This document shows, in pieces, positions 5,662 through 53,776 of a stretch of DNA of 64,000 nucleotides. The stretch comes from a virus: positions 7,509-71,508 of the IMG/VR virus record IMGVR_UViG_3300032092_000023; one strand, 5' to 3'. The notes below the pieces were generated by a model. That model had not been told where the DNA came from. It made no database searches and saw only the letters and a list, made by a program, of their open reading frames with translations. Position 1 is the first letter of the stretch. Each line of letters begins with the position of its first letter. The position numbers were made by a program, and so were the translations under genes.

Positions 5662-8600
5662 TTAAACAGATGCAAATCCACCTGTTGCGATAGCTCCTGT
5701 CTTAAGAACAGTTATACGATTAATGAATTTCTGTAATCCTCGAGCAGGTTCGATTCCTATGTCAAGAATACCGAAATTTTGATCGATGATTTCAGGTGTG
5801 TTATTAGTTTCATCCATAATTACTGAGTAATCATAGATTCCTCCGCCGTTACGAACCACATCAAGATATGTTTCTACCAGAGTACGGATCTCCAAACGAG
5901 TAGATGCGTCGTTGAATTCAAACAAGTAGTTTTGCAAGATTTCAATTACCGCTTCTTCAATTGTAATTAACAAGTCCCTTACGTGTAAGTTATTGAAAGC
6001 AGAGATAGTTCTTTGGTAAGCAGTTTGGTTAGCAAAAATCATTGGACCAACATTACGAACCACCACGATAGGGTTAAGACCGATTGGTTCAAGGTATTCG
6101 CGATCTTTAAGTAAGAAGTCGTATTCCATACCTACGAACTTTGGATTCGAGATTACACCGCGGCGAGGGCCAGCAACGATTGCATAAGGTTGACCGTTGA
6201 TAAACTTACGAATAAAGTTGTTTGATACGTCAGCGGCTGGCGGAATGCTCTTGTTCTTGCCATCTTCACGAATGATGATGTTAGGAGTAAATACACCAAT
6301 AAATTTTGCACCTTGTTCTTCATCAGGTAAACCCCAAGTATAGCTTGGTCCTAATGTAAGATTACCGCCGGTTGCGATATATTCAGTGTTAAGCACTGGT
6401 TTCGGATTCCCCGTTTGCGCATCAGGTAGTTCAGTGAATCGTGGATCATTGCTTGCCTGAAACTCTGCCATTGAAGGAGCGTTTAAGATTGCCATACACT
6501 GTAAACGATTCTTAGCCAAACGACTGAGGTATTGTTTAGGTCCCATTCCTGGTTCAAGACCTCCGTTGAATGTATCTACAATATAACGGAATTGAATTAC
6601 GTCTCGGCTAGAAAGAGTGACACCTACTTGTGTATTCTCCAGAACTCCTAAGATTTTCTCTAGTTGTGCTGGCGATCCAGGTAAGTGATATTCTGTTAGC
6701 TTAAACCCAGAAAGGTTAGTAAATTGGTAGCGATCAACGAATTTCTGAATTGGAGTAAACTTGGTTACGTAATTGATACCACTTAAAGTAGTAACACCAG
6801 GAACTTCAAGAACTGAATACTCAAAGAAAGGAGCACCAGTTATTGGGTCAAGTTTTTTCACCTTTGCAGTAATACGAGTTAGCTTAGGGTTATTGATATC
6901 ATTGTTAACCAAGAAGTCGCCAATGTTAATCTTAGCACCATTAGCATTTGTTAGCTTAAAGGTTTTTCCACCGCCATAAATTCCAGGCGCTTCAATAGCA
7001 ACGTTTTCGCTGATATTCTTTGCAAGCGAAGAGTAAATAGCAAAAAGGTTTTCACTAATCACCGGCGCAATCTGTACTGCAGTGTCAACGTATGTTGCGT
7101 TAAGAGCAGCAAAAGATTCGTTTGCGGGATTAAGAAGTTGCGAATCCGCAAACTCACGAAGTCTAGCACCTACTAAACCGTAAGCAAGCTTAGAGTATGG
7201 ATCTTGCGATTGACTCCAAACGATGTCGGAATTAAGGTAATTATACTGAGAAGATCCTACGCCGTATTTTACTCTGTCACCGTCAACGACCAAACCAGCT
7301 ACAATGTTCTTTGCAAGTTTAGCGCCAGGGAATGCTTCAATATAAGCAAGAGTAGTAATATCGGATTGTTCCACATTATACAGAGCAGGTGATGCTGCAA
7401 TAGAAAGAACCTTTCCGCGGAAGAATTGTCCTCCAGGAAGTGTAAAGCGAATTACATCACCAACTGCAGCTCCGTTTAACAAGAAAGGATTCCCTCCTGT
7501 TGCGTTGTCCACAACATATAATTGACGGAATGTAATACTTCCACTGTCTAAGTCAACAGCAGGAGTACCAAATCCTGGGTTAATGATGTTACCCGCAGAA
7601 TAAGCGTTGTCAGCAGTTTCGTTATAGATTTCTACAAGGTTTGATGCAGATGCTGTAACGGTTTGACCTAAACCTTCAATGCTAGTGAATTCAGCAGCTG
7701 GTTCAAAAATGTAACCAAACTGATTTCCTGGGAAGATGTTAAGATCAGGAACTAAGAATAAGTTAGCGCCAGCAACAGATGCTTTATAAAGAGAAACTTT
7801 AATATCAGAAGGCTGTACAAATGCTGAGAATTCATCAGCAGCAAATCCACCTACGCACCATTTATTAAGGAAGAGGGGTCCTCCTGTTGAAGGTGATACG
7901 CTGATTACAATTCTATCAACACCCGCAGAAACTGCTGCAGTGAAAGATGCCACTTCAAAGTACTTAGCATATCCAGCAGACTCTACCAAGATAACATCTC
8001 CAGATGCAGGTGTTAAGTTTGTATAGCTAGAAATATCTAGCGTGTTTGCTGTCACCGGAATTGCTGCAAGAATAGTTTCCTCAATATAATCTGATTCCGC
8101 GCCTGTACCGTATGAATTATAGTAAGCGTTATTGGTATGAAGTGGAGAGCTAAGTTGAACCTGTAACTCTGTACCAGTGTCAATTACATTTTCCACTTTA
8201 ACATAATCATTCGCCAATGTACTGTTAATGATATTATCAGTACCAGCTGTTCTAATTAAAGAGTTCTTAGTTAAACCGTCAAGAATTGCTTCCCATTGTG
8301 AAGGTGTGAAAGTAGTATCACCAGGAATTGGTTTTGGAAGAACAAGAACGTTACCAAACTTACCGCTAGTTCCTCCGTAAGGGTATGATTTAACGTAAGG
8401 TACCGCAGAGCCACTAGCTGGATCGTATGATTTTAAAACCAATTCTGTGTTATCGAGATTACCGTCTTTACCAGTGAAAGACATAATGCTCTTAATTGGA
8501 GTATTGTATGATAAGAAATCAAGAGTATCATCGGTTGTGTTGATAAGATTGTTGCCAATCATATCTACCTTATACTTAGAGTTTGCGTAATCGCTTAGTG

Positions 8601-18570: not shown

Positions 18571-20199
18571 TTAAAATCCTCCCATTCCTCCGTCTGACTG
18601 CTGTTGAATCTGCTGTGCAAGTTTCATGTCAGCTAAATCTTTCTCTGCCTGCTCAGCCTTCATTCTTTCATTTGCCGCAATGTCATCTTGTGAAAGCTTG
18701 AGGTATTTCTCTATAACAAATCGTGGTGTAAAGTAAGGAACATCAACGTCCATGCCGGTAGCGTCCTTTTTCTTGTCCATGATTTGCATCATATTGGAAG
18801 CAAAGTCAAGTCGCTTACCTAACATATCCATTTGCTTAAGCTCTTCAAATATGTTATCTTTATTGTAAGTAATTGCCAAAGTAGATTTAAACAATTCATC
18901 TTCTGCAAGTTCTGGGTAAATAAGGCCCATTTGAATAAATAGTGGCTTGAGAACAATTTCTTGATAGATTGAGCGTAGTCGAGTAATAAACTTGAAGAAA
19001 CGAATTTCTTCTCGGTCAATACCGTCGGCTGATATTGAATACTGGCCGCCGCCGCCACCTCCCATACCTTTATCAAATCTTGAACCAGGTATCTTAGAAT
19101 CCTCAATTAATTTATCTTTAAAGTATTGTAGCTGTGCAGGATCGCTTAGGTCAAATCCTTCACCTCCCATAACAGATATGTCGGGTGACTCACCGTTCTT
19201 AGATGGAAACAAATAGTTCTTGTAAAATTGCATTGAAGGAGAGCCGTTAATTGAAAGCTCACCTGAATCTTGGTTAAGATTAACGTCTTCTTTATAAATG
19301 TTAATCATTTCCGCAAGAGCCTCTTTAGCTTTTTGCGGAGACTTGGTTCCTATAGGTACCACCATCTTCATGCGGTAACTGGCGTTCATGATGTTCCAGA
19401 TGACCCGGCTGTTTTCCATAATGCGCAATAGATTGAATGAACGTACCATTCTCTCCACATACGAAACACGGCCTGTGAAGTTACCTTTAGCGTATGATAT
19501 GTAAATTACTTGTGAATCAAGGAGAACTCGTTTCATCGCAGGAATATCTTCATACTGTACCCAGATTTTTTTATATGTTCCGTCACTTGCCTTTTCTACA
19601 CCAGGGCGTAAAGAAATTGGGTCCAACTCTTTAAAACCTACAATGTTTTTTCCATCTGGGTCAAATATGATTTCAAACGAAATGAAACCGTCAATTAAGA
19701 GCTGACGAAAATACGCCCAAGCATCGTGCCCACCGGAAAAATGAAAGTGTGCATAGATTTTCTTAAACTGTTGATTAAGCTCGGATATGACTTCTTTTTG
19801 ATTGTCCGGAGAAAGCACCTCTCTTACTTTACCGATGTCAACATTACAAAAGTAATTGGAGTCATCATAAACAATTGCTTCATCGGCAATGGTATCTACA
19901 ACAAATTCTATCTCAGGGTTCATTGCAAATTTTCTAAGATAGTCGCGTCTTGCTTTATAGTCTTTATCAAAAAACGCAATAAACTTTTTCTGACCTACAT
20001 CAGAAAGAGCTAATGAATATAAGAATTCTTCAGGTAAATATCCTTGGTTACCAAATTCTGCTTCTGTAACACCAATCGCTCTTGACTGCTTTACGACCAT
20101 ATCTTCGTATCGCATACCAAGATTGGCTAAATTCTTTAGACTTTTTGAAATCTGTCCAAACACGGGATTCACCCCAATTCTATCAATAAAACCTGCCAT
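18571..20199 (-). CDS. gp20: Portal protein
   Basis: R..AMNPEIE..VD.IADEAIV, FRQLLIDG, LDP, N.LRIME...VI, KAKE.L, IDREEIRFFKFI.RLR. Confidence 0.95.
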   Translation of the reverse strand: MAGFIDRIGVNPVFGQISKSLKNLANLGMRYEDMVVKQSRAIGVTEAEFGNQGYLPEEFLYSLALSDVGQKKFIAFFDKDYKARRDYLRKFAMNPEIEFVVDTIADEAIVYDDSNYFCNVDIGKVREVLSPDNQKEVISELNQQFKKIYAHFHFSGGHDAWAYFRQLLIDGFISFEIIFDPDGKNIVGFKELDPISLRPGVEKASDGTYKKIWVQYEDIPAMKRVLLDSQVIYISYAKGNFTGRVSYVERMVRSFNLLRIMENSRVIWNIMNASYRMKMVVPIGTKSPQKAKEALAEMINIYKEDVNLNQDSGELSINGSPSMQFYKNYLFPSKNGESPDISVMGGEGFDLSDPAQLQYFKDKLIEDSKIPGSRFDKGMGGGGGGQYSISADGIDREEIRFFKFITRLRSIYQEIVLKPLFIQMGLIYPELAEDELFKSTLAITYNKDNIFEELKQMDMLGKRLDFASNMMQIMDKKKDATGMDVDVPYFTPRFVIEKYLKLSQDDIAANERMKAEQAEKDLADMKLAQQIQQQSDGGMGGF

Positions 20200-20223
20200 G
20201 TATTTTTCTTTTTGTATATATTC

Positions 20224-20943
20224 TTACTTTCCAGGACGGATGTATTTCTTCTTATCTTTTGCTGTCTTAACTTTGTCAGGTACTTTTTTGTTTAACAGCC
20301 CCTTTACTTGAATGTACTCTTTCCAAACAGCTGCAGGAGGTTTTCCATTAAATTCCTTTGGCATGAAATACGGTATCATTTCCCAATCTTCCAATTCAAT
20401 AATAACCGGCTGCGTGATTCGGGGGATTATGTAATTTCGATATGCCCATTGATAACCAATCTTTCCTTGCTGATTGAATATCTTTATTGTAAAATACCAA
20501 TCGGTTAAGAACTTCCATGCACCTCTTAAACGTCCAATTGCTCCTTCATTTACCAGTTCCTCCGCATCTTTGAGATCATTCTTATAGATATCATAAAATA
20601 TCTGCAATGTTTGTACTCTTTGTAGTTCGGGTAAAAAATTAAGGTTCAGCCCTTGAACTATCATATTACCTTCTTTAGAGATAAACTGAGAATGAACAAG
20701 AACCATAGGTCGCTTATCGTAAAAGTCCAATACATCTTTATAGAGAGGGTCGTATTTCCAAGTGTAAATTCTGCCAGGAAGAAAAAACTTAAGTTGCTTT
20801 ACACTACCTCGTTCAAAAGTTTCTAGAAACCCGGTATCTGTGTACGGTTTTTTAAAATACTTGTCGTTAAAAAACTGATAGCCGTTCTTGCGAAGTTGAT
20901 CCTTTCTATCGGCTTCGCGGTATGCTTCAAGAGGTGCTTTCAT
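20224..20943 (-). CDS. gp2: DNA end protector protein (gp2-like)
   Basis: PGRIY.W.YDP..KD.L.FYD.RP.V...GLNLNFLP. Confidence 0.85.
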   Translation of the reverse strand: MKAPLEAYREADRKDQLRKNGYQFFNDKYFKKPYTDTGFLETFERGSVKQLKFFLPGRIYTWKYDPLYKDVLDFYDKRPMVLVHSQFISKEGNMIVQGLNLNFLPELQRVQTLQIFYDIYKNDLKDAEELVNEGAIGRLRGAWKFLTDWYFTIKIFNQQGKIGYQWAYRNYIIPRITQPVIIELEDWEMIPYFMPKEFNGKPPAAVWKEYIQVKGLLNKKVPDKVKTAKDKKKYIRPGK

Positions 20944-21461
20944 CTGCTAAACAAAAAATCTTCGGTAACTATAACAAACTTATAACCTCTTTCAGCAGCA
21001 AAAAGTTTTGCAGCGGAAAACTTAGCACGATTGACTAGCCAAGTCTTAAGAGCATAGTTATAGTTCTTGATTTTTTTGGTGGTTATTTTCTGTCCTTCAA
21101 GAAGAGGCTTTGTTAAAGATGCCTCCGGTTTTACTTCAGCCAAATAATCAACCTCGTTCTCTCCTTCTTTAACCCGCAAATAAAAGTCTACATAATAAGT
21201 ATGTGTCTTGTTACCTGCTGGGTTGTCGAGAGGACTAACATATTTTATACCAACGGGCTCCGATGACCATCGGATAACATTTTCATTGGTATCGCAATAC
21301 ACGCAAAATCGATGCTCCCAAGAAGAACGATATATGATTTGCGACGTATCACCAATGTACTTTTCCGTGTTAACTAATTTGTAATATCCTTGACGAAACC
21401 CGCTTTTGTGACTGGGTTTATTTGACTTAATATCACTCACAATGATTGCTTTATTATACAT
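20940..21461 (-). CDS. gp4: Head completion nuclease (gp4-like); start may be the GTG at 21440
   Basis: QG.Y...N.EKYIGD..QIIYRSSWE..F..YCD.N..V..WSSE, YYVDF, EVKP, N.AK..AA. Confidence 0.92.
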   Translation of the reverse strand: MYNKAIIVSDIKSNKPSHKSGFRQGYYKLVNTEKYIGDTSQIIYRSSWEHRFCVYCDTNENVIRWSSEPVGIKYVSPLDNPAGNKTHTYYVDFYLRVKEGENEVDYLAEVKPEASLTKPLLEGQKITTKKIKNYNYALKTWLVNRAKFSAAKLFAAERGYKFVIVTEDFLFSR

Positions 21462-21504
21462 TAATGTCTTTTTTCATCATAATGATTACTTTATTATACA
21501 TTAA
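21441..21504. repeat. 24-bp direct repeat (23/24 identical), 40-bp period
   Basis: aatgatt(g/a)ctttattatacattaa at 21441-21464 and 21481-21504. Confidence 0.9.
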
Positions 21505-21845
21505 ATACTGTAAAGGTTTTCGTTACTTAAAGAGATTTTTGATGTTGCACTTAACGGATGAAGCTTACGCCATCCTTTAGCAAATCCGTGTTTTATAATC
21601 TGCGTGTAATACGCAAAAGGATAATTTGATTTTTCTGGGTTATAACTTCTCCAGTATTTAATAACATCCATTAAAGCAAAAGCAATGCAATCTTTGCGAT
21701 CCTCTTCATCTTTATACTTTAGTTTTTTTGATGTTTCTTTTGCCATAAGCATGAACATTTCCACTGCTCGTGGAGTAAGCTCGTCGTTTTCTTTTGAGAT
21801 AAGAATCTCTTTCTTAAGCTCTTCTGGGTTTATGTAATTTGCCAT
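21501..21845 (-). CDS. gp55: Late-transcription sigma factor (gp55-like), compact 114 aa
   Basis: NYIN..EL, D.I..A.....KYW..YNPEKS.YPFAYYTQI...F. Confidence 0.88.
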   Translation of the reverse strand: MANYINPEELKKEILISKENDELTPRAVEMFMLMAKETSKKLKYKDEEDRKDCIAFALMDVIKYWRSYNPEKSNYPFAYYTQIIKHGFAKGWRKLHPLSATSKISLSNENLYSI

Positions 21846-21853
21846 AGTTAGTA

Positions 21854-22474
21854 TTAGTTAGTGTTTGCAGAAGATGATACTTCCGATTCGTCATCAAGAC
21901 TCTTAACATACGATTGAAGTTCTGCCATGCAAACATTTAATGAATCAAATGAAAGCTTGCTGTTTTCTTCAACTGTCTTTTTTAATTCTGCAAGCTCTCC
22001 TATGATTCCATTAACGGAATCAGTTAAGCCTGCAAGAAATCCTGTGAGTTCATCGGGTTTGTTTTCCCCTGTTTTGGGGTTAGCAGCGATATCATTCTCT
22101 GAATTATATACACCTACTTCATTTAGTTCTAGGTGCTTCTTTTTTACCCGTGACTTTCTTGTGCCATCAATAATAATTTCGATATCGTCATTATCGCCTT
22201 TTGATGTATAATCAACTGCCTTGATTAAAACGGGGAAACCTGCTTCTTTACCTGGATAAGTTTTACCTAAAGATCCTTTAACAAAACCATAGGCCTCGCG
22301 AATTCCTACCGTTGCTCCGTCTCCCTGAGATTGTATCTCAAGGTCGTTTCCTGGTTTGGATTCTGAGGCCTTCTTGGTTACTTTAATGTCTGCTGGTTTG
22401 ACGGTTTCTGTTGTTCCGTCGTCAAACTTAATTACAATAGTTTTTCCTGCTCCGCTTAAGCTAGTGACTACTGC
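21854..22474 (-). CDS. Un-called 206-codon frame with no start codon near its 5' end; -1 frameshift extension of 22468..24054
   Basis: Translated by hand: AVVTSLSGAGKTIVIKFDDGTTETVKPADIKV...SSANTN*. No stops; fills the gap exactly; joined at A_AAA_AAG (T9 at 22475-22483). Confidence 0.8.
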   Translation of the reverse strand, partial: AVVTSLSGAGKTIVIKFDDGTTETVKPADIKVTKKASESKPGNDLEIQSQGDGATVGIREAYGFVKGSLGKTYPGKEAGFPVLIKAVDYTSKGDNDDIEIIIDGTRKSRVKKKHLELNEVGVYNSENDIAANPKTGENKPDELTGFLAGLTDSVNGIIGELAELKKTVEENSKLSFDSLNVCMAELQSYVKSLDDESEVSSSANTN

Positions 22475-24054
22475 TTTTTTTTTAAGTATTCAACTTCGTC
22501 ACCTGCATTTACACCTAATCCTTCAGTCACATGAGTGAAAGCATTTATGGCATTCTTTGCATTGTAGTATTCTTCTCTAACAGAGTCAACCTCTTCTTGA
22601 ATTGCGGCAATAAGTTCTTTTACTTCAGAAGATTCGCGAACATCTACATCTGTAATGGATTCAAGAATATTCTTTCTTTCTTCTAAGTAATTGATTGCGT
22701 CCATACATTCAGTAGCCTTTTCTTGAAGATCAACAATTGTTTTATCTTCTTTAGATAGAAGCTCTTTAAACGTTAATCCTAAATCATAGCTAGCAAACTC
22801 CATAACAAGATTTCTACTTTGCGATGCATTGCAATTAGGATAGAATCGTGTTTCATTCATTAGGTTGTCAGCAGTGAAGATAAAAGTGTTTTCGTTTAAC
22901 TTAAAAACATCAGCACGACGATGAGGCATTCCTTTTGGATAAATTGACTTCGTAAAGTCAAGCTCAAAGATAGCATCCCAATGTTCAACCAATTGGCCGA
23001 CTGCGCTAATTACTTCTCTTTCCTCCATACGGAAAACACCGGAATTAAGATACACACGGTGGAATTCATCTTTAGTTACTTTCTTGTTATTAACAAAGAT
23101 AGCAAGACCTTCGGATTCTTCGACAAGTTCCACCTTTTTATCACGAGAGAAAACCTTAATGGAGTTTTCTAAAATCTCTACATTATTTTGCGATAAGAAA
23201 GATGAGATAAATGTAAAGTAAGAAGGGAGTTTGGCATTTTCATCTTCGGTTAACGGTCGCATTTTGTTGCCGTTCTTTACGTAGGCTACACCGTTTACCG
23301 CAAAAATTTCGTCGTTCTCTGAAATGATTACCGGTGAGTATGATTTCTTGACAATTACGTCAGCACCAGTTGCTTTAAGTTGAAAAGAATTTTCAGATTC
23401 TATTACAACATTATGTAAATTGCGAATTGCTTTGTCATGCAAGTATTTACCAAGCGATTCGATTAGAGCAACACGATTTGTTGGTGTTCTGTGATTAAGA
23501 TATTCATTGATATGTTTTTCAATCCCTGTCATTAAGAAAGCAGAGCTAGAATTGTTTTTTGCTTCGTGAACAGCTTTATAAATCTTGATGTCTTCAGAAT
23601 ATTTCTTGCTGTTTACGGTTAATTCATCAATAGCTTGTTTTACCGTAGGATCCCACGAAAACGGTGCCAAAGATTCAAGTACGTGATCAACGATCAGCCA
23701 CTCAGGAAGGCTTTCTACTTTGGAAAGTTTTTCCAACATGTATAATGCAGTAGGATGTTTTGCCAGCTCAGATTCTCTAATGCTCTTAAGCGATTTCTTT
23801 ACACCCAAATTGTGCATTTCGGTAATACGTGTGATTTCCGTAACGAAATTGACTACATCGCTATCATTGATGTTTTCGAGATCGCTAATCAGTCCTTCTG
23901 AGATTTTCATCTCAATTTGCTCAACAGCTTCCGGTGAAATGTTGAAGATAGAGTATTCGGTGCACTTCTTGAGAGCCTCTGTACAAACGTTTTTAGCTTC
24001 TTCTGAAGAAGTAGAGGAGATTAGCCCTTCAATTCTTTTTCTCAAATTTGACAT
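22468..24054 (-). CDS. Late, probably virion-associated hypothetical protein (helical/coiled-coil)
   Basis: 528 aa; GATATATA upstream at 24079-24086; ends EYLKKKQ at the slippery site. Confidence 0.75.
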   Translation of the reverse strand: MSNLRKRIEGLISSTSSEEAKNVCTEALKKCTEYSIFNISPEAVEQIEMKISEGLISDLENINDSDVVNFVTEITRITEMHNLGVKKSLKSIRESELAKHPTALYMLEKLSKVESLPEWLIVDHVLESLAPFSWDPTVKQAIDELTVNSKKYSEDIKIYKAVHEAKNNSSSAFLMTGIEKHINEYLNHRTPTNRVALIESLGKYLHDKAIRNLHNVVIESENSFQLKATGADVIVKKSYSPVIISENDEIFAVNGVAYVKNGNKMRPLTEDENAKLPSYFTFISSFLSQNNVEILENSIKVFSRDKKVELVEESEGLAIFVNNKKVTKDEFHRVYLNSGVFRMEEREVISAVGQLVEHWDAIFELDFTKSIYPKGMPHRRADVFKLNENTFIFTADNLMNETRFYPNCNASQSRNLVMEFASYDLGLTFKELLSKEDKTIVDLQEKATECMDAINYLEERKNILESITDVDVRESSEVKELIAAIQEEVDSVREEYYNAKNAINAFTHVTEGLGVNAGDEVEYLKKKQ

Positions 24055-24107
24055 CTTTTATATGTTTATTTTCTTGTTTATATATCTCGAGTTTACTCAA
24101 GTTTTTA

Positions 24108-25661
24108 TCACTGTATGTAGATTTTTCCAATCGTTGATGATGTAATATAAGACCCACCAGTGATTTGCGCGTTTACATTATTATTTATACCTAATCTGTT
24201 TTGGATAGGATCAGCATATGTAATCGTTGATCCTGGTGGGACACCTATACCTTCAACGGTTAACCCAATAAGCAAAGACTTATCAAGTAAAGATGATACA
24301 GCAGGATTAACATTTTTGATATATGCGTTTCCTGGAGCAGGAAGCGTACTGTCCACATCTCCGGTAAAACTTAGCTCTTCATTAAGTTCTTTATATGTAA
24401 GTTCAGAGTTAGCGTCTTCTATCTTAAGTTCAATTTCAGTTAAAGATGAAGGAGTAAATCCTGCGCCTTGATTAACGATTGTGTAACCTACAACTTCTCC
24501 GCCAATGACGTTAGCCTGGATCACAGGTTCAATAAAATTGGCAGGAAGAACAGGAGGCGTAGGGAAGATACCCACTTCTATGATATCAGTCGAGCCGTAT
24601 GAAAATCCTTTATCAAAAATAATGATTTTTTCGACTTCGCCTAATGCGTTAATGATAGGCCGCGTTTTTCCACCTCTTCCACTAGATGTGGTTATTGAAG
24701 ATCTTTGCGGTTCAAATACAATTTCGTTTCCGCTAGAATTAAAGAACGGTAGTTCCCAATTGTAATATCCGTTGTTTACTTGATTCTTGGCAATGGGAAT
24801 CCATGTGTCGGTGCCCGCTATTCTATAATAGAGGTTAACTCGCAAAATAGGTCCGGTGTTTGTCCAAGTAATTGGTAGGGAGCCGCCGGAAAAGAAAGTT
24901 TCTTGTGAGATTGGTGATTCAAAGGAAAATGTAGAAGGCTTTGGGCGCCCAGGAAAGGTTTCATCAAGTGAAGCTGAATTTCCTCCGATATCCATTCGGT
25001 TTGCGTTACTTCTTAATGTAGTAGAATCAAGTACTGGGTAATATGTTTCTACTTCAATATTAAACTTGACTAGGATTCTTTCATTTGATTGATAGCTAAA
25101 TTGAAAAGTTTTTTCTACACCAAATTCTTCAGAGAATCCTGCTTGACACGGAATTCTAAATCCTCGAAAATTAACAGAGAAAACTTGTGTCTTATAGAAA
25201 GTTTCCATAAGAGCCTGCTCAACCTTAAATGCGTCAAGATTACTATCAACTTCTACCTCAATAGTAAATGTCATTGAGAGAGGAAGAGAATTTATGAAAG
25301 CGTTAAATTGCTGTATCTCACCATTGACCTCTTTAACAAAAGTACCACGAACAAACCTATGAGTTAGTTTTGAACTGTCAATACTTTTTGAGTCCATTGT
25401 TACAATACCACGGGGTATGACATCGTAATTCCCGTCTGCATGCCGAGGATGAATGCAATCATTCCACTGTAAAAAGTAGTCCTGTAAAAATCTTTCGTCA
25501 CCTCCCATATTGTAGAAGAACGGAACATAGACAATATCTATGACGCTGTCTGACAAAACATTTTCAAAGAAAACCTTGCTATTCAGTAGATTAACGATTC
25601 CAACAATGACAGCTCGTGAGTGTACATTATCTGTGTTGTACTTGTGGAGGAAGTTTCCCAT
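24108..25661 (-). CDS. gp15: Tail terminator / sheath stabilizer (gp15-like) with C-terminal beta domains
   Basis: VPFFY..G.DERFL, IPRG..........D..KL, P....F pattern of gp15; late motif 5 nt upstream of the ATG. Confidence 0.65.
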   Translation of the reverse strand: MGNFLHKYNTDNVHSRAVIVGIVNLLNSKVFFENVLSDSVIDIVYVPFFYNMGGDERFLQDYFLQWNDCIHPRHADGNYDVIPRGIVTMDSKSIDSSKLTHRFVRGTFVKEVNGEIQQFNAFINSLPLSMTFTIEVEVDSNLDAFKVEQALMETFYKTQVFSVNFRGFRIPCQAGFSEEFGVEKTFQFSYQSNERILVKFNIEVETYYPVLDSTTLRSNANRMDIGGNSASLDETFPGRPKPSTFSFESPISQETFFSGGSLPITWTNTGPILRVNLYYRIAGTDTWIPIAKNQVNNGYYNWELPFFNSSGNEIVFEPQRSSITTSSGRGGKTRPIINALGEVEKIIIFDKGFSYGSTDIIEVGIFPTPPVLPANFIEPVIQANVIGGEVVGYTIVNQGAGFTPSSLTEIELKIEDANSELTYKELNEELSFTGDVDSTLPAPGNAYIKNVNPAVSSLLDKSLLIGLTVEGIGVPPGSTITYADPIQNRLGINNNVNAQITGGSYITSSTIGKIYIQ

Positions 25662-25672
25662 CTAAGTATATA

Positions 25673-27349
25673 TCATTGTATTTTTTCCACGGTTACATTA
25701 GAGAATCCGTTGTTTTTTGATATTTCTAATCGGTAATCAAATATTTCGGTAGGTAACTGACTATGATTAATCACAAATATGTTTAGGTTAAGGTCCTTAC
25801 AAGTTTTGTGAAGGACTCCTAAAATATGATAGATACCATCGCTATCAATGGATGAAAAGATTTCATCTAAGAAGACTAAGTTAACGCCAGCAAATTTCAT
25901 CTTCATCATTCGGATTAATGCTATCAATGCAGCAAAGTCAACTTTCTTTCGTTCACCGGTGCTTAGTTGCTCAGGTGCTACCTTAAATCCAAGATGTTGA
26001 ATGTCAGCTTCAAACTCTTCATTAAAAGTTACTCGGTAATCCATATTAAGATCAGCAAGAACCCTTTTAATTTCTGAGTTCAGCAATGGCAAGATTCTTC
26101 GTAAAGCAAGAAGCTTAATTCCTTTATCGCCAAAGATGTCTTCCACTATTTTGTAAAAGTTAGCCTTTCTCTCTTCTACATCTTTACGAGTCCGTGCCTC
26201 TTCTTGTTTCTTTTGCGAATCATCAATGATGTTCTTTAACGATGATGTTTGCTCATCGCTGCCGTTAGACACATTCATCTTGGTTAGCTCTGCATGAATT
26301 CCGTCTATCTTTGCCTTTGCGGTTATCTTCTTGCGATTGGTTTCATCGTATAAACCCTTTAGATGTTTTCTTTTTCCTTGTAGATCTATTTGCAGTACCT
26401 TTATTTCATCAATCTCTGCTTTTACATCAAGGTTTTGTTTTTTGTATTCTTGTAAGATACCTTGATAATAATCAGTGGTTAAATCAGATTCGCAGGTAGG
26501 GCACTTTCCTTTTTCATAAAGACTTATTTTTTCTGACCGATGACGGCATTCCCATTCTAACTTTGAAGTACTTTTATTCCAAGTCTCTAACGATTCGCTT
26601 AAGTCTTTATCTTTATCTTCAATTTGTGATAAGTGTGACTGCGCTTTTTCTATATACCCATTTAACTTATTTAAGCTTTCTAATAATTCTTCCCGTTTTT
26701 CTTCACCAGCAATCTTTAGTTTTTCATTAAGCGAATCGAGTTCTTCGTTTGATTTTTGAATAGTTCGGTCAAGAACAGATATCTCAGTAGTGATGAGTTC
26801 TGCCTGTTCTTTCAATAGCTTAACCTGATAACGAACTTTCCATTTAACAGCGCCAATAATCTCTAAGCCAAAGAGTCTATCAATTATCATCCTCTTATCA
26901 TGAACACGCATGCTGATAAAACTTTTAAAATCGTTGATTGAGAGGCTGATCATATTATTGAACACATAGTACGGAATACCTAAGATTTCCTCTTCTAGGA
27001 ATTCCTGCATATTTTTCTTTCCTGCTTGGTCGTATTCAATTCCATTAATGAAGAGACGAAAAACGCTAGGTGCTAAACCTCTTTCAATAGTTACCAGAGT
27101 TGTAGGATTCTTTTCAACTACAATCTTGACATGTGCGTTTCCGTTAAACCTATTAGGTATGTCACGCAACGATTTTGAATCAACCTTGCCGTAAAGTCCA
27201 AACTTAATAACGTCAGAAATTGTAGACTTACCCGCTCCGTTTGAGCCTACAACAAGAAAGAAACTCCCTTCTTGATCGTCAAACGTAATGTTCTGTGACT
27301 TATTTCCGTATGACCCAAAATTCTTAAATGATATACTACGTATTTTCAT
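25673..27349 (-). CDS. gp46: Recombination endonuclease ATPase subunit (Rad50/SbcC-like)
   Basis: FKNFGSYGN, GSNGAGKST, CPTC zinc hook, LSTGE, FLDEIFSSID. Confidence 0.95.
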   Translation of the reverse strand: MKIRSISFKNFGSYGNKSQNITFDDQEGSFFLVVGSNGAGKSTISDVIKFGLYGKVDSKSLRDIPNRFNGNAHVKIVVEKNPTTLVTIERGLAPSVFRLFINGIEYDQAGKKNMQEFLEEEILGIPYYVFNNMISLSINDFKSFISMRVHDKRMIIDRLFGLEIIGAVKWKVRYQVKLLKEQAELITTEISVLDRTIQKSNEELDSLNEKLKIAGEEKREELLESLNKLNGYIEKAQSHLSQIEDKDKDLSESLETWNKSTSKLEWECRHRSEKISLYEKGKCPTCESDLTTDYYQGILQEYKKQNLDVKAEIDEIKVLQIDLQGKRKHLKGLYDETNRKKITAKAKIDGIHAELTKMNVSNGSDEQTSSLKNIIDDSQKKQEEARTRKDVEERKANFYKIVEDIFGDKGIKLLALRRILPLLNSEIKRVLADLNMDYRVTFNEEFEADIQHLGFKVAPEQLSTGERKKVDFAALIALIRMMKMKFAGVNLVFLDEIFSSIDSDGIYHILGVLHKTCKDLNLNIFVINHSQLPTEIFDYRLEISKNNGFSNVTVEKIQ

Positions 27350-31902: not shown

Positions 31903-33081
31903 TTAAAAAAGTTGAGTTCTAACTATTAGTTCAGGCGGAAGAGGAGGAAGGCCTGTTGCAGCAATAAAACGATTAATAGGATCAATGATACATTTTGCAA
32001 ATTGCGTATCATAATCAACAGGCGGCGCAAACTCAGATGGAAAGTTTCCTGGAAGGTATGCAAAAACATTCTGCCCACCTTCTTCTTGTCTTGCATAATA
32101 GTACCTTACCTTATCACCGCTTTTAATTAATTGATATTTTGACTTCCACTTTGAATTGTTTAAGGTATAATTATAGTAACCTGCTGCGCGAACATGCATA
32201 GGGCAGTGTTCATTAATCACAAACTTTTTTCTATCTTCGCCTATACCTTTTTCATAATCGCTAATACTTGATGACATTGAAACGTTTTCCACATTGTCAA
32301 GCATAAACGATTCTTTCTCTTTCTTTAAGAGGTCAGCAAACTTTCGCATGTTAAGCTTACCTCTTTCTTGGAAGATTATTTTTAGGAGTTCCATCAGTTT
32401 CTTTCGAGCAAATGCAGGAGTGGAAGACTGTACAATTTCCACTCCTTTTGCATCAATTTTTTTCTGCGGCTCGTAATATGTTCCTCCACCAGCACCTGAT
32501 TTCCAGGCTTTATCCATCACATACTTTTTCTTTTTCAAAAAGATAGCACTGTGCGATATGGTTTCCATCTCCAGATCTTGAATGTTTTCTGTCCCAGCTT
32601 GGTTTGCCATTGCTGTAAAGTTTTTATCCAAGTAATCCTTTAAGCGATGTTCATATATCAAATGGATAAGTTTTCTCGGATCTTCTGTCCAGTCGGTTCC
32701 TTTGACGACGTCTTGGAAAGATACATAGCAAGAATCGGTATCTCCGTAAACCGCAACCTCATCTTTGATTTTAGTGGCTTTGGTTATTCCAATTTTTTCG
32801 TGAAGCTGTGTGTCACGATACCAAAAATCTGTGAAGTAGCGATTAATGATCTTGCTTACATACTTAATCATTTCTTGCCCTTGCAAGGTAATGGCTTCTG
32901 CAACACGAACATTGTAACCTACGAAATACGGAGACGCAGTAGCACCGTAGACCGAGTTGATGAAAATTTTGATAGCCTGCTCCTCATTCTTTTTCAGATT
33001 CATCAACCAGGTCAGTCGATTGATCTCCGCAACGATTTCTTCTTTGCTTGCTGTATTTGGATCAATCTTACAGTACTTCAT
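31903..33081 (-). CDS. gp43B: Family B DNA polymerase, C-terminal half (fingers-palm-thumb)
   Basis: KIFINSVYG (motif B), AEAITLQGQ, YGDTDS (motif C), KKKY, KGVE...SSTP; no exonuclease domain or motif A. Confidence 0.93.
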   Translation of the reverse strand: MKYCKIDPNTASKEEIVAEINRLTWLMNLKKNEEQAIKIFINSVYGATASPYFVGYNVRVAEAITLQGQEMIKYVSKIINRYFTDFWYRDTQLHEKIGITKATKIKDEVAVYGDTDSCYVSFQDVVKGTDWTEDPRKLIHLIYEHRLKDYLDKNFTAMANQAGTENIQDLEMETISHSAIFLKKKKYVMDKAWKSGAGGGTYYEPQKKIDAKGVEIVQSSTPAFARKKLMELLKIIFQERGKLNMRKFADLLKKEKESFMLDNVENVSMSSSISDYEKGIGEDRKKFVINEHCPMHVRAAGYYNYTLNNSKWKSKYQLIKSGDKVRYYYARQEEGGQNVFAYLPGNFPSEFAPPVDYDTQFAKCIIDPINRFIAATGLPPLPPELIVRTQLF

Positions 33082-52393: not shown

Positions 52394-53776
52394 TCATAAA
52401 GTGTTCATTTTCGCCTTCAATTGTTCAATTTCGTCCTCAATTTCTATATAAATTTTCTTGGATGCCTTTCTTTTTCCGTAATACTCAGAAAGAATGGTTC
52501 GGAAAACACTGTCTTCGTCTTTCTTAAATACTGCGCCCGACGAACAATAAATTTCGGTTTCAGGGTTTACCTGTGCCTGGTCTTCCACATTTCTTAAATA
52601 AGATTCAGGTGATATGTTCCACTGGCGCATGATTGACGGATATAGCGAAGCAAAGTCAAAAGATACCACCCACTCATAGAGGCCTGTCTTAGGTTCTACA
52701 ACAAACGCTCCTTCATAAGATTCGCGCTTTTTCTTAGCAGCGTCTGACTTAGGGAATACTTTCCCTCTTCTTTGAAACTCTCTTGCCATCGCAGCTTCTG
52801 CCATCCAAATAGGGCTATATGCTCGGTTAGCTTCCACTTTGGTAATGTTTCCTAATGTTAGGAAAGTTTGCAATGTGTTTAGCTTGCGGTCAATCATTTC
52901 GACAAGTTTGGTATCGACTGCATTGTAAAAGATGTATGATTCAAAATCGTTTTGATACAAGTCTTGGAGCGTTCCGTTGTACTTTACTTTAGGAATTCCT
53001 AAAGCAGCGCTAGCAACAAAGTCAAGCGTATTGTTTTCTTTAATGTCAATGACACGATCCCATTTCTTATAGACATCAAGATAATCGACTACCATGCGGT
53101 GCATAGGTAATTGTGCATCTCCTACTATACGATTAGATATTGAGCAAGCGCTAGGATCAATGTTGAGACGTTTACATCGATTCATTAGGTAAGCCCAGTC
53201 ATATCCGACAAAATTCCACCCAGTTAGCAAAGGCATCTTAAGAACCGCTTTATAGAAAAAGCTAACCATCATATCATACTCACTCTGAAAGGGAAGATAC
53301 GTAAATTCCACTTCTTCTTTTAAGTGTTCTTCTATTCTTTTCTTGATGCTGGCAATTTGCTTTGCCGTCAGCGGGCGGGTTGCCATTGAAAAGATGCGGT
53401 TACCATTGCAAAAGGTTATTGCGGTAACAGGAAATTTTGCAGTGTCAGGCTTTGGCCATTCATCGCCAACCTCAACCTCAATATCGAGAAAAAACTTTTT
53501 GGGTGCATGTGTTGAATAAATGTTTCGTGTCCTTTCTTCAGGCAGTGACCCAAGAAATTCCTCAATTCTCCACTTACTTAAGTATCGAGCCCGTCTTTTT
53601 CTAACGGGCTTGCCATCCCATGATTGAGCGCCAGGATGCGGTTTTTCTCCTAATGCACAGTATTCCCACTCAAACATTTGGTCAGCAGGAATATCAATCT
53701 TATCAATTGCAATTTCACCGTTTTCATCAAAGTAAGATATCTTGAGCGATGAGTCGTGTTGTTCTATGTCTATCAT
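52394..53776 (-). CDS. gp43A: Family B DNA polymerase, N-terminal half (3'-5' exonuclease plus motif A)
   Basis: LDIEV (ExoI), TGWN...YD..YL.NR (ExoII), YNAVDT (ExoIII), YEGAFV.EP..G, SFDFASLYPSIM (motif A); ends in the first fingers helix. Confidence 0.93.
   Translation of the reverse strand: MIDIEQHDSSLKISYFDENGEIAIDKIDIPADQMFEWEYCALGEKPHPGAQSWDGKPVRKRRARYLSKWRIEEFLGSLPEERTRNIYSTHAPKKFFLDIEVEVGDEWPKPDTAKFPVTAITFCNGNRIFSMATRPLTAKQIASIKKRIEEHLKEEVEFTYLPFQSEYDMMVSFFYKAVLKMPLLTGWNFVGYDWAYLMNRCKRLNIDPSACSISNRIVGDAQLPMHRMVVDYLDVYKKWDRVIDIKENNTLDFVASAALGIPKVKYNGTLQDLYQNDFESYIFYNAVDTKLVEMIDRKLNTLQTFLTLGNITKVEANRAYSPIWMAEAAMAREFQRRGKVFPKSDAAKKKRESYEGAFVVEPKTGLYEWVVSFDFASLYPSIMRQWNISPESYLRNVEDQAQVNPETEIYCSSGAVFKKDEDSVFRTILSEYYGKRKASKKIYIEIEDEIEQLKAKMNTL

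Follow-up and report, generated by a model that had tools for sequence, protein, structure and literature searches.

The question raised by this locus is whether two reading frames that meet at a run of nine A's are expressed as one long protein in addition to the shorter product of the first frame, and by which route the frame would be changed. The locus lies in a stretch of 64,000 nucleotides (nt), here called the window, which comprises positions 7,509 to 71,508 of the IMG/VR virus record IMGVR_UViG_3300032092_000023; the source is an uncultured freshwater T4-like giant phage, and coordinates are those of the window unless a locus is named. Programmed recoding of some kind is very probable from the comparison of sequences, and with it the production of a 528-amino-acid (aa) and an approximately 733-aa isoform. 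The chances are about even that this is a selected recoding site with slippage of the RNA polymerase as its main route. The direct basis is the site itself, its conservation, the switch of the frame under coding constraint and a domain that extends across the junction; from these we infer the production of both isoforms, their ratio and the route.

The 0-frame gene (P0001, 528 aa) occupies 22468..24054 on the minus strand, as do all features described at the junction, and its 3' end reads GAA TAC TTA AAA AAA AAG CAG TAG. The nine-A run (T9 on the plus strand) is at 22475..22483 and is invariant in 24/24 aligned relatives. The heptamer A_AAA_AAG, in 0-frame phase (the codons AAA AAG after an A), is at 22474..22480, and the stop codon TAG, one codon past AAG, at 22468..22470; the relatives have TAA, TAG or TGA at 0-2 codons past AAG. 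Read in the -1 frame, the junction continues as K-AVVTSLSGAGKTIVIKFDDGTTETVKPADIKV... and remains open for 206 codons. This extension (P0002, K plus 206 codons) covers 21854..22477 with its stop codon TAA at 21854-21856, is conserved at the protein level and has no usable start: the first canonical start codon within it is an ATG at codon 183 of 206, and no open reading frame (ORF) of at least 50 aa beginning with ATG, GTG or TTG was found on the minus strand of the gap. Five codons ahead of the junction (ILKKK) the -1 frame is interrupted by a TGA at 22490..22492, which confines a shift to about 20 nt, most of which are the A-run itself. The extension ends 8 nt ahead of the ATG (21845) of the gp55-like gene. 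In the original prediction a 206-codon -1 extension had been described that runs past the nine A's to this TAA, has no ATG until near its end and fills the gap before gp55, and each of these elements was found to be correct on re-reading. Neither the 64-kb window nor the 71.5-kb record has another homopolymer of this length or longer; the other homopolymers of the window comprise one run of eight, the rest being of seven or fewer.

Lak phages read TAG as a residue. Reassignment of the stop codon in this manner was rejected as an account of the layout, since the 0 frame would gain only four codons before a TAA, and the relatives use TAA or TGA.

The layout was compared in a set of 33 DNA rows, consisting of the window and 32 loci from viral and metagenome contigs, of which 27 are non-redundant; locus L002, which starts past the site, was left out. 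The run is followed by G and stands in one phase in all 33 rows, with nine A's (A9) in 26 and ten (A10) in 7, and all 7 A10 rows have the form G+A10, GAA AAA AAA AAG. A_AAA_AAG accordingly stands in 0-frame phase in 33/33 rows. The 0-frame stop follows AAG directly in 7 rows, after one codon in 13 and after two codons in 13. In 30 of the 33 rows 162-215 codons of the -1 frame are free of stops, and in the other three the frame runs past the end of the contig. Among the 27 non-redundant loci a stop 3-17 codons upstream always closes the -1 frame, the overlap never contains a canonical start, and the +1 frame runs into a stop within 4-10 codons. The first start codon of the extension is at codon 26-183 or is absent, except in 5/27 loci with GTG as codon 1; locus L003 has no ATG, GTG or TTG in 166 conserved codons of the extension.

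The same break is seen in the proteins. A protein search yielded 35 proteins, 32 of which are family members (the query and P0004-P0034) of 480-555 aa with 43-100% identity. All 32 end in ...DE.E..KKK plus 0-2 residues, and K525-K527 are invariant in 31/31 aligned family proteins. The expectation that homologs keep the break at the same position was thus borne out, one 358-aa in-frame singleton being described below. Three larger proteins of 723-763 aa (P0035-P0037, 22-25% identity) were tried as unbroken homologs and rejected: MAFFT placed '...YIKVKESGETGKI...' beside the junction, and a profile comparison of the extension with P0035 gave a probability of only 0.35%.

In a 24-sequence DNA alignment the A9G motif forms ten columns with zero variability. 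Variability peaks at the third position of the 0 frame upstream of the run (1.29 vs 0.72 and 0.88) and at the third position of the -1 frame downstream of it (1.49 vs 0.98 and 0.75), so that the frame of codon-position variability changes exactly at the A-run. The extension is conserved as a protein, with 25 invariant columns in 19 sequences and 43-91% identity to the extension of the window. Judged from these alignments, the layout is beyond chance, both in its presence in 33/33 rows and in the switch of the variable position at the run. The comparative evidence (all rows, the switch of constraint and the conserved extension) upholds the proposal of a hidden -1 extension that gives 528-aa and approximately 733-aa isoforms.

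The length of the run was also examined in other assemblies. The sequencing runs X2, X3, X8 and X12 were compared at the site as assembled contigs only, and X2 does not span the run. A DNA contig of X3 spans it with A9, 0 differences and 0 gaps, and two contigs from metatranscriptome libraries span it with A9 and 0 gaps; the source of the latter is a relative diverged by about 2-3% (23 differences in 816 nt and 7 in 391 nt). Since X3 may share a sampling campaign with the source sample, the 27 loci are the real independent support. With three contigs bridging A9 without gaps, the concern that the run is an A10 misassembled as A9 is refuted by the assemblies.

Several contigs from two RNA libraries match only 30-55 bases near the slip site (22467-22524 of the window) and lose similarity beyond them. 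Precisely in this short stretch the nucleotides of other family members are nearly identical.

An exhaustive HMMER search with the extension returned 16 proteins, 15 of which are miscalled pieces of 55-196 aa with internal starts. The remaining one, P0045, is a fragment of 358 aa that reads through the junction as ...GDEAELSKKK-VKIIAVDETGKTITVV... and is the only in-frame form among the 16. It is a singleton on one 1328-nt contig and could represent a genuine A10 variant, come from slipped RNA, or be erroneous. Fused forms of greater length were not found when P0002 was searched by shared words, which is weak evidence.

This natural in-frame relative, and not the window's own fusion, was modelled with AlphaFold, and the model was built on an alignment of unaltered translations of both frames from the window and 17 loci. 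The mean predicted local distance difference test (pLDDT) of the model is 75.6, with blocks of 79-89 over residues 181-220 and of 48 for 221-230. Five strands are predicted, at 181-184, 187-194, 200-204, 210-214 and 218-222, and the KKK of the junction lies at 186-188. Structural comparison with VIA-align matched P0045 172-229 to the PHF1 Tudor domain (Z 7.5, root-mean-square deviation (rmsd) 1.6, 55 aligned residues), 174-224 to the Spt5 KOW domain (Z 7.2, rmsd 1.4, 51 aligned) and 175-221 to the TDRD3 Tudor domain (Z 7.0, rmsd 0.8, 47 aligned). A second barrel, at 247-312, matched the Sla1 SH3 domain (Z 6.9, rmsd 3.2, 60 aligned). Foldseek on the P0045 model listed the same kinds of barrel, none with an E-value below 1e-3. 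Membership in the Pfam Tudor, SH3 or KOW families was not reached: Tudor_3 scored 17.9 bits on the extension vs a cut-off of 25.8, and Pfam gave no match on P0045. The model thus supports a five-stranded fold of the Tudor/SH3/KOW-like class and does not support membership in a family.

By homology the predicted domains were transferred to the window. Barrel 1 (Tudor/SH3/KOW-like) lies approximately at 22352..22524, corresponding to P0045 172-229, with strand 1 coming from the 0 frame and strands 2-5 from the -1 frame. The SH3-like barrel 2 lies approximately at 22103..22300, from P0045 247-312, and is absent in the lineage of L003, L013 and L014. A C-terminal helical segment of the extension lies approximately at 21857..22045, from the P0045 helix 332-357, the P0045 model being without the last approximately 40 residues. 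The model of the 528-aa form has a pLDDT of 82.1, a long helical hairpin at about 430-507 and a low-confidence tail at 513-528, and this tail fits a first barrel strand that is without its partners. The proposal that one continuous SH3/Tudor-like barrel crosses the junction holds for the model of the close relative and, by alignment, for the window.

In the mechanism that we favor, standard reading would end at the TAG one codon past the run and give the 528-aa protein, whose last approximately 15 residues would form an incomplete barrel strand. A fraction of expression events would instead go on in the -1 frame and give the approximately 733-aa protein, in which the junction would complete the Tudor/SH3-like barrel and add the second barrel and the C-terminal helix. 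The main route would be slippage of the polymerase on the nine A's with the addition of one untemplated A, so that part of the mRNA would carry A10 and be read normally. Ribosomal -1 tandem slippage on A_AAA_AAG would add to this, probably more in a sub-lineage that bears a hairpin. Both routes would give the identical protein ...YLKKK-AVVT....

The lean toward polymerase slippage comes from four observations: the third base of the preceding codon is always A, the run is never shorter than nine A's, runs of 8 or more are avoided at other places, and an RNA structure common to the family is lacking. This third base, which is not part of the heptamer, is A in 27/27 loci though the residue it belongs to varies (TTA in 15, GAA in 5, GGA in 5, CTA in 1 and TCA in 1), and in these genes the share of codons ending in A is otherwise only 44% for Leu, 77% for Glu, 37% for Gly and 26% for Ser. 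The run is A9 or A10 in 27/27 non-redundant loci, and A6-A8 occurs in no lineage. Over 192.7 kb of these phages, sense-strand A8 runs elsewhere number 2 vs 19.5 expected and A9+ runs outside the site 3 vs about 10.7 expected, and runs of A5-A7 are at or above expectation. A search for a consensus RNA structure found none downstream of the site in the clade of the window (17 sequences, 0 predicted pairs) and none upstream (23 sequences). In the account of Baranov et al. 2005 (PMC1088944), selection against such runs becomes apparent in many genomes once they reach nine bases, and by the logic given there the avoidance of long runs marks them as prone to slippage. The same text holds that a run of nine A's with conserved length and conserved ORF organization in homologs is very likely to reflect purposeful transcriptional slippage (PMC1088944).

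Several points weigh against a leading role of polymerase slippage. Both RNA-library contigs show A9, although DNA may be present in those libraries; A10 would therefore not be the majority form of the mRNA, minor forms being invisible in assembled contigs. The phase NNA AAA AAA AAG and the following G are invariant, as a ribosomal A_AAA_AAG site requires, and since A9 holds two overlapping heptamers (A_AAA_AAA and A_AAA_AAG), the extra A's could be explained by translation alone. One sub-lineage of 7 sequences has a compensated hairpin 9 nt downstream, which is a classic ribosomal stimulator. The avoidance of long runs could reflect slippage in replication rather than in transcription. Finally, AT-rich hosts may suppress slippage on A9 (Baranov et al., PMC1088944).

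The lineage of L003, L013 and L014, in which the extension has 162-166 codons and no second barrel, contains a second in-frame nine-A run inside the extension (EKKKA / FKKKD). Apart from the main site, the 192.7 kb contain no A9 runs but these, at L003 3208-3216 and at 3767-3775 of L013 and L014, and slips at them would end within 3-8 codons.

The strongest rival is a purely or mainly ribosomal -1 shift, in which two Lys-tRNAs would slip back by one base on A_AAA_AAG, helped by the near 0-frame stop and, in some lineages, by a 3' hairpin. It is a serious possibility that we would put at rather below even chances. The heptamer is in the correct phase in 33/33 rows and always ends in G, with the stop 0-2 codons on. 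In the 7 sequences L010, L011 and L029-L033, 90% of the cells of the hairpin 9 nt past AAG are paired vs 25-62% in slid controls, and its covariation score of 0.253 vs 0.129 in shuffles was reached by 1/500. The 79 nt downstream of the site in the window itself fold better than shuffles (z -2.76), but this fold is not kept in the nearest relative L004 (z -0.46) and starts without a spacer after the heptamer, and the clade of the window has no common downstream structure, as noted above. No Rfam frameshift element was matched at E up to 1 in window positions 20000-26000. Unstimulated frameshifting is usually low, which counts against the ribosomal route, and the heptamer alone leaves unexplained the constant A at the end of the preceding codon and the lack of lineages with A6-A8. 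Of the heptamers tested in E. coli, A_AAA_AAG shifts most readily (PMC5009743, PMC4066793), and the shiftiness of AAG depends on the tRNA-Lys set of the host (PMC5009743). The original prediction had put a ribosomal -1 shift at A_AAA_AAG first and had also mentioned transcriptional slippage; what stands is that the heptamer is in phase everywhere, and what does not is the ribosome as the single agent, since it is one of two live routes and the invariant nine A's together with the lack of a family-wide stimulator point at least equally to transcriptional slippage.

In the hairpin at L029 3552-3569 and its equivalents, the compensatory third-position changes are CUGCGG/CCGCAG, CAGCAG/CUGCUG and CCGCAG/CUGCGG. 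Five of these seven loci also show the GTGA overlap described below.

A second rival is a DNA contingency locus, in which replication would change the length of the run and a minority of genomes would carry an in-frame A10, with no recoding at the level of RNA or ribosome. A precedent is the nine-base A repeat in the T-even-type phage gene T2 agt, which is described as reversibly hypermutable, variants making up about 7e-4 of the reads (bioRxiv 10.1101/2025.10.21.683753). The repeat of T2 agt is like the present run in its length and its setting in a phage gene, but the wild type of T2 has it in frame, with variation of about 1e-3 or less (same source). In the present family the out-of-frame state is fixed in all 27 lineages. 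An in-frame relative (P0045) exists, and long runs are avoided elsewhere. Against this, 27/27 non-redundant assemblies are out of frame where both states would be expected among switching loci, and the sole in-frame form is the P0045 singleton on its 1328-nt contig. Expression in about 0.1% of genomes would moreover hardly keep 162-215 codons free of stops and 25 residues invariant across 43-91% identity. We consider a contingency locus very unlikely.

It is slightly more doubtful still that the -1 ORF is a separate gene, translated by re-initiation past the 0-frame stop or from a non-canonical start without any fusion. In 5 of the 27 loci (L011, L029, L030, L031 and L033) the GTG first codon overlaps a TGA (GTGA), an arrangement that permits termination-reinitiation; the other 22 loci have no canonical start there, their first start codon being at codon 26-183 or absent. 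In the predicted structure, barrel 1 needs a strand encoded upstream of the junction, and the tail 513-528 of the 528-aa model is of low confidence. Gene callers yielded only internal-start fragments of 55-196 aa. An artefact or decay, that is a homopolymer assembly error or a recent pseudogene, is extremely improbable: homopolymers are error-prone and one in-frame fragment exists, but the identical break is found in 27 non-redundant assemblies of different collections as well as in the X3 DNA contig and the two RNA-library contigs, and both frames are under coding constraint.

Among known systems, the site resembles those of -1 frameshifting in E. coli dnaX and in IS3/IS911, which use A_AAA_AAG in the same phase, and the 3' hairpin of L010, L011 and L029-L033 has the spacing typical of these sites. 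The E. coli dnaX and IS3/IS911 sites have strong conserved stimulators, consisting of an upstream Shine-Dalgarno-like element and a 3' stem-loop or pseudoknot. The present family has no family-wide stimulator and no Rfam match, and it conserves nine A's where the heptamer needs six. In E. coli dnaX the shift shortens the product. In gene 10A/10B of T7 and T3, the capsid gene of Lactobacillus phage A2 and G/GT of lambda, a major short and a minor extended protein are made by a -1 shift near the 3' end. Those are identified capsid or tail-chaperone genes, and the junction of the present gene, unlike theirs, lies within a folded domain and not before an added one. Elements of the insertion sequence type with A9 are comparable cases of slippage.

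The dnaX gene of Thermus thermophilus (tau/gamma) likewise has, according to PMC1088944, a sense-strand run of nine A's in the coding sequence, two products and nearby stops in the other frames. There, however, the templated frame gives the long product and slippage the short one, which is the reverse of the present arrangement; the Thermus gene is moreover a cellular replication gene and not a phage gene, and slippage in the present case is a proposal only. In mxiE and spa13 of Shigella an extra untemplated base in a homopolymer joins overlapping ORFs, and the long product needs the slip, as is proposed here; a C-terminal extension is present on 25-30% of the spa13 product (PMC1088944, PMC5009743). 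These are type III secretion genes of the host without protein homology to the present family, and the run of mxiE consists of U's (PMC1088944).

Less can be said about the protein itself. Neither Pfam nor PHROGs gave anything above threshold for the 528-aa protein or the extension, the PDB sequence profile search gave no match, the ESM Atlas no usable match, and Foldseek of the 528-aa model against the PDB a TM of only about 0.1. In a VIA-wide fold search the 528-aa model matched only by its helical hairpin 434-511, which is generic. The matches in BFVD are uncharacterized phage proteins, including one of Tenacibaculum phage PTm1 (E 1.7e-15); the sole annotated match is 'DNA ligase 1' of Tenacibaculum phage pT24 (E 4e-9, TMq 0.22). 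Among named sequences, the 528-aa protein is closest to ORFs of Lak megaphages, with 23-24% identity. The T4 late-promoter motif TATAAATA is not enriched in the window, with 5 found vs 5.2 expected, and the neighborhood is a mix of DNA-metabolism and head genes. The description of the product as a late virion protein is therefore without support, there being no PHROG, Pfam or PDB-fold assignment and the late motif occurring at chance. No published account of the gene family and its slip site was found in the full-text literature, supplements being outside the scope. The protein family is undescribed; the recoding device itself is of a well-known kind.

In the relative from Lak-A1 (L034 796-4308, MK250016.1) the corresponding region is embedded in a longer ORF (at least 1171 aa, open under translation table 11) without KKK or a long A-run.

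Gene callers split or truncate this gene, so that about 28% of the protein is missing from the annotation in a whole lineage of freshwater giant phages, and the databases hold only the short forms of 524-555 aa and orphan extension fragments of 55-196 aa. With 27 diverged versions of one site, the family offers an unusually clean natural test case for distinguishing slippage of the polymerase from frameshifting of the ribosome; a covarying hairpin is present in one sub-lineage and missing from another, and the junction falls inside a domain whose complete barrel would exist only in the long form. If the role of the protein is found, the two-isoform design would inform how a phage doses a binding module. 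A wider reading, which we regard as unlikely, is that the nine-A run is one of a set of polymerase slippage sites in several unrelated genes of aquatic T4-like and giant phages. If so, the slipped fraction of the mRNA would be set by the state of the transcription machinery (the host sigma-70 form or the gp55/clamp-loaded late form), and the change of the isoform ratio during infection would amount to a programmed, timed 'editing' of mRNA in tailed phages.

The window is a dense one-strand gene block. Translation table 11 fits, the window being densely coding under it, and no tRNA genes were found in the window. The CheckV completeness of the 71.5-kb viral record that holds it is 24%. Samples that share sequence words with the region are labelled lake, freshwater, freshwater-sediment and 'fungus metagenome'. 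Annotated structural genes of the window comprise those for a tail sheath, a large terminase, a portal, a gp2-like DNA end protector and a gp4-like head completion protein. Annotated genes of DNA metabolism comprise those for a gp46/gp47-like nuclease, a DnaB-like helicase, a UvsX-like recombinase, topoisomerase II, a ligase, a ribonucleotide reductase and a clamp loader.

Around the junction the order of genes is gp46/47, a gene for a 517-aa protein, the 528-aa gene and the gp55-like gene. Besides the low-confidence tail and the helical hairpin already mentioned, the 528-aa product is predicted to have a helical N-terminal part and two beta-rich parts. The downstream neighbor, at 21501..21845 on the minus strand, encodes a gp55-like late sigma factor of 114 aa (phrog_234, E 1.4e-12). 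The upstream neighbor of 517 aa, at 24108-25661 on the minus strand, is without a PHROG or Pfam match; it was considered as a paralog of the 528-aa protein and rejected on comparison.

Two further observations concern genes elsewhere in the window. A family-B DNA polymerase is apparently split in two genes about 19 kb apart, at 31903-33081 and 52394-53776 (both minus strand); on phrog_262 the 460-aa ORF covers positions 102-496 and the 392-aa ORF positions 496-838. The gp4-like 'head closure' protein at 20940-21461 (minus strand) matches phrog_218 (E 6.5e-44), and the same protein matches Pfam Tn7_TnsA-like_N above threshold with 69.7 bits, which is a nuclease-type fold.

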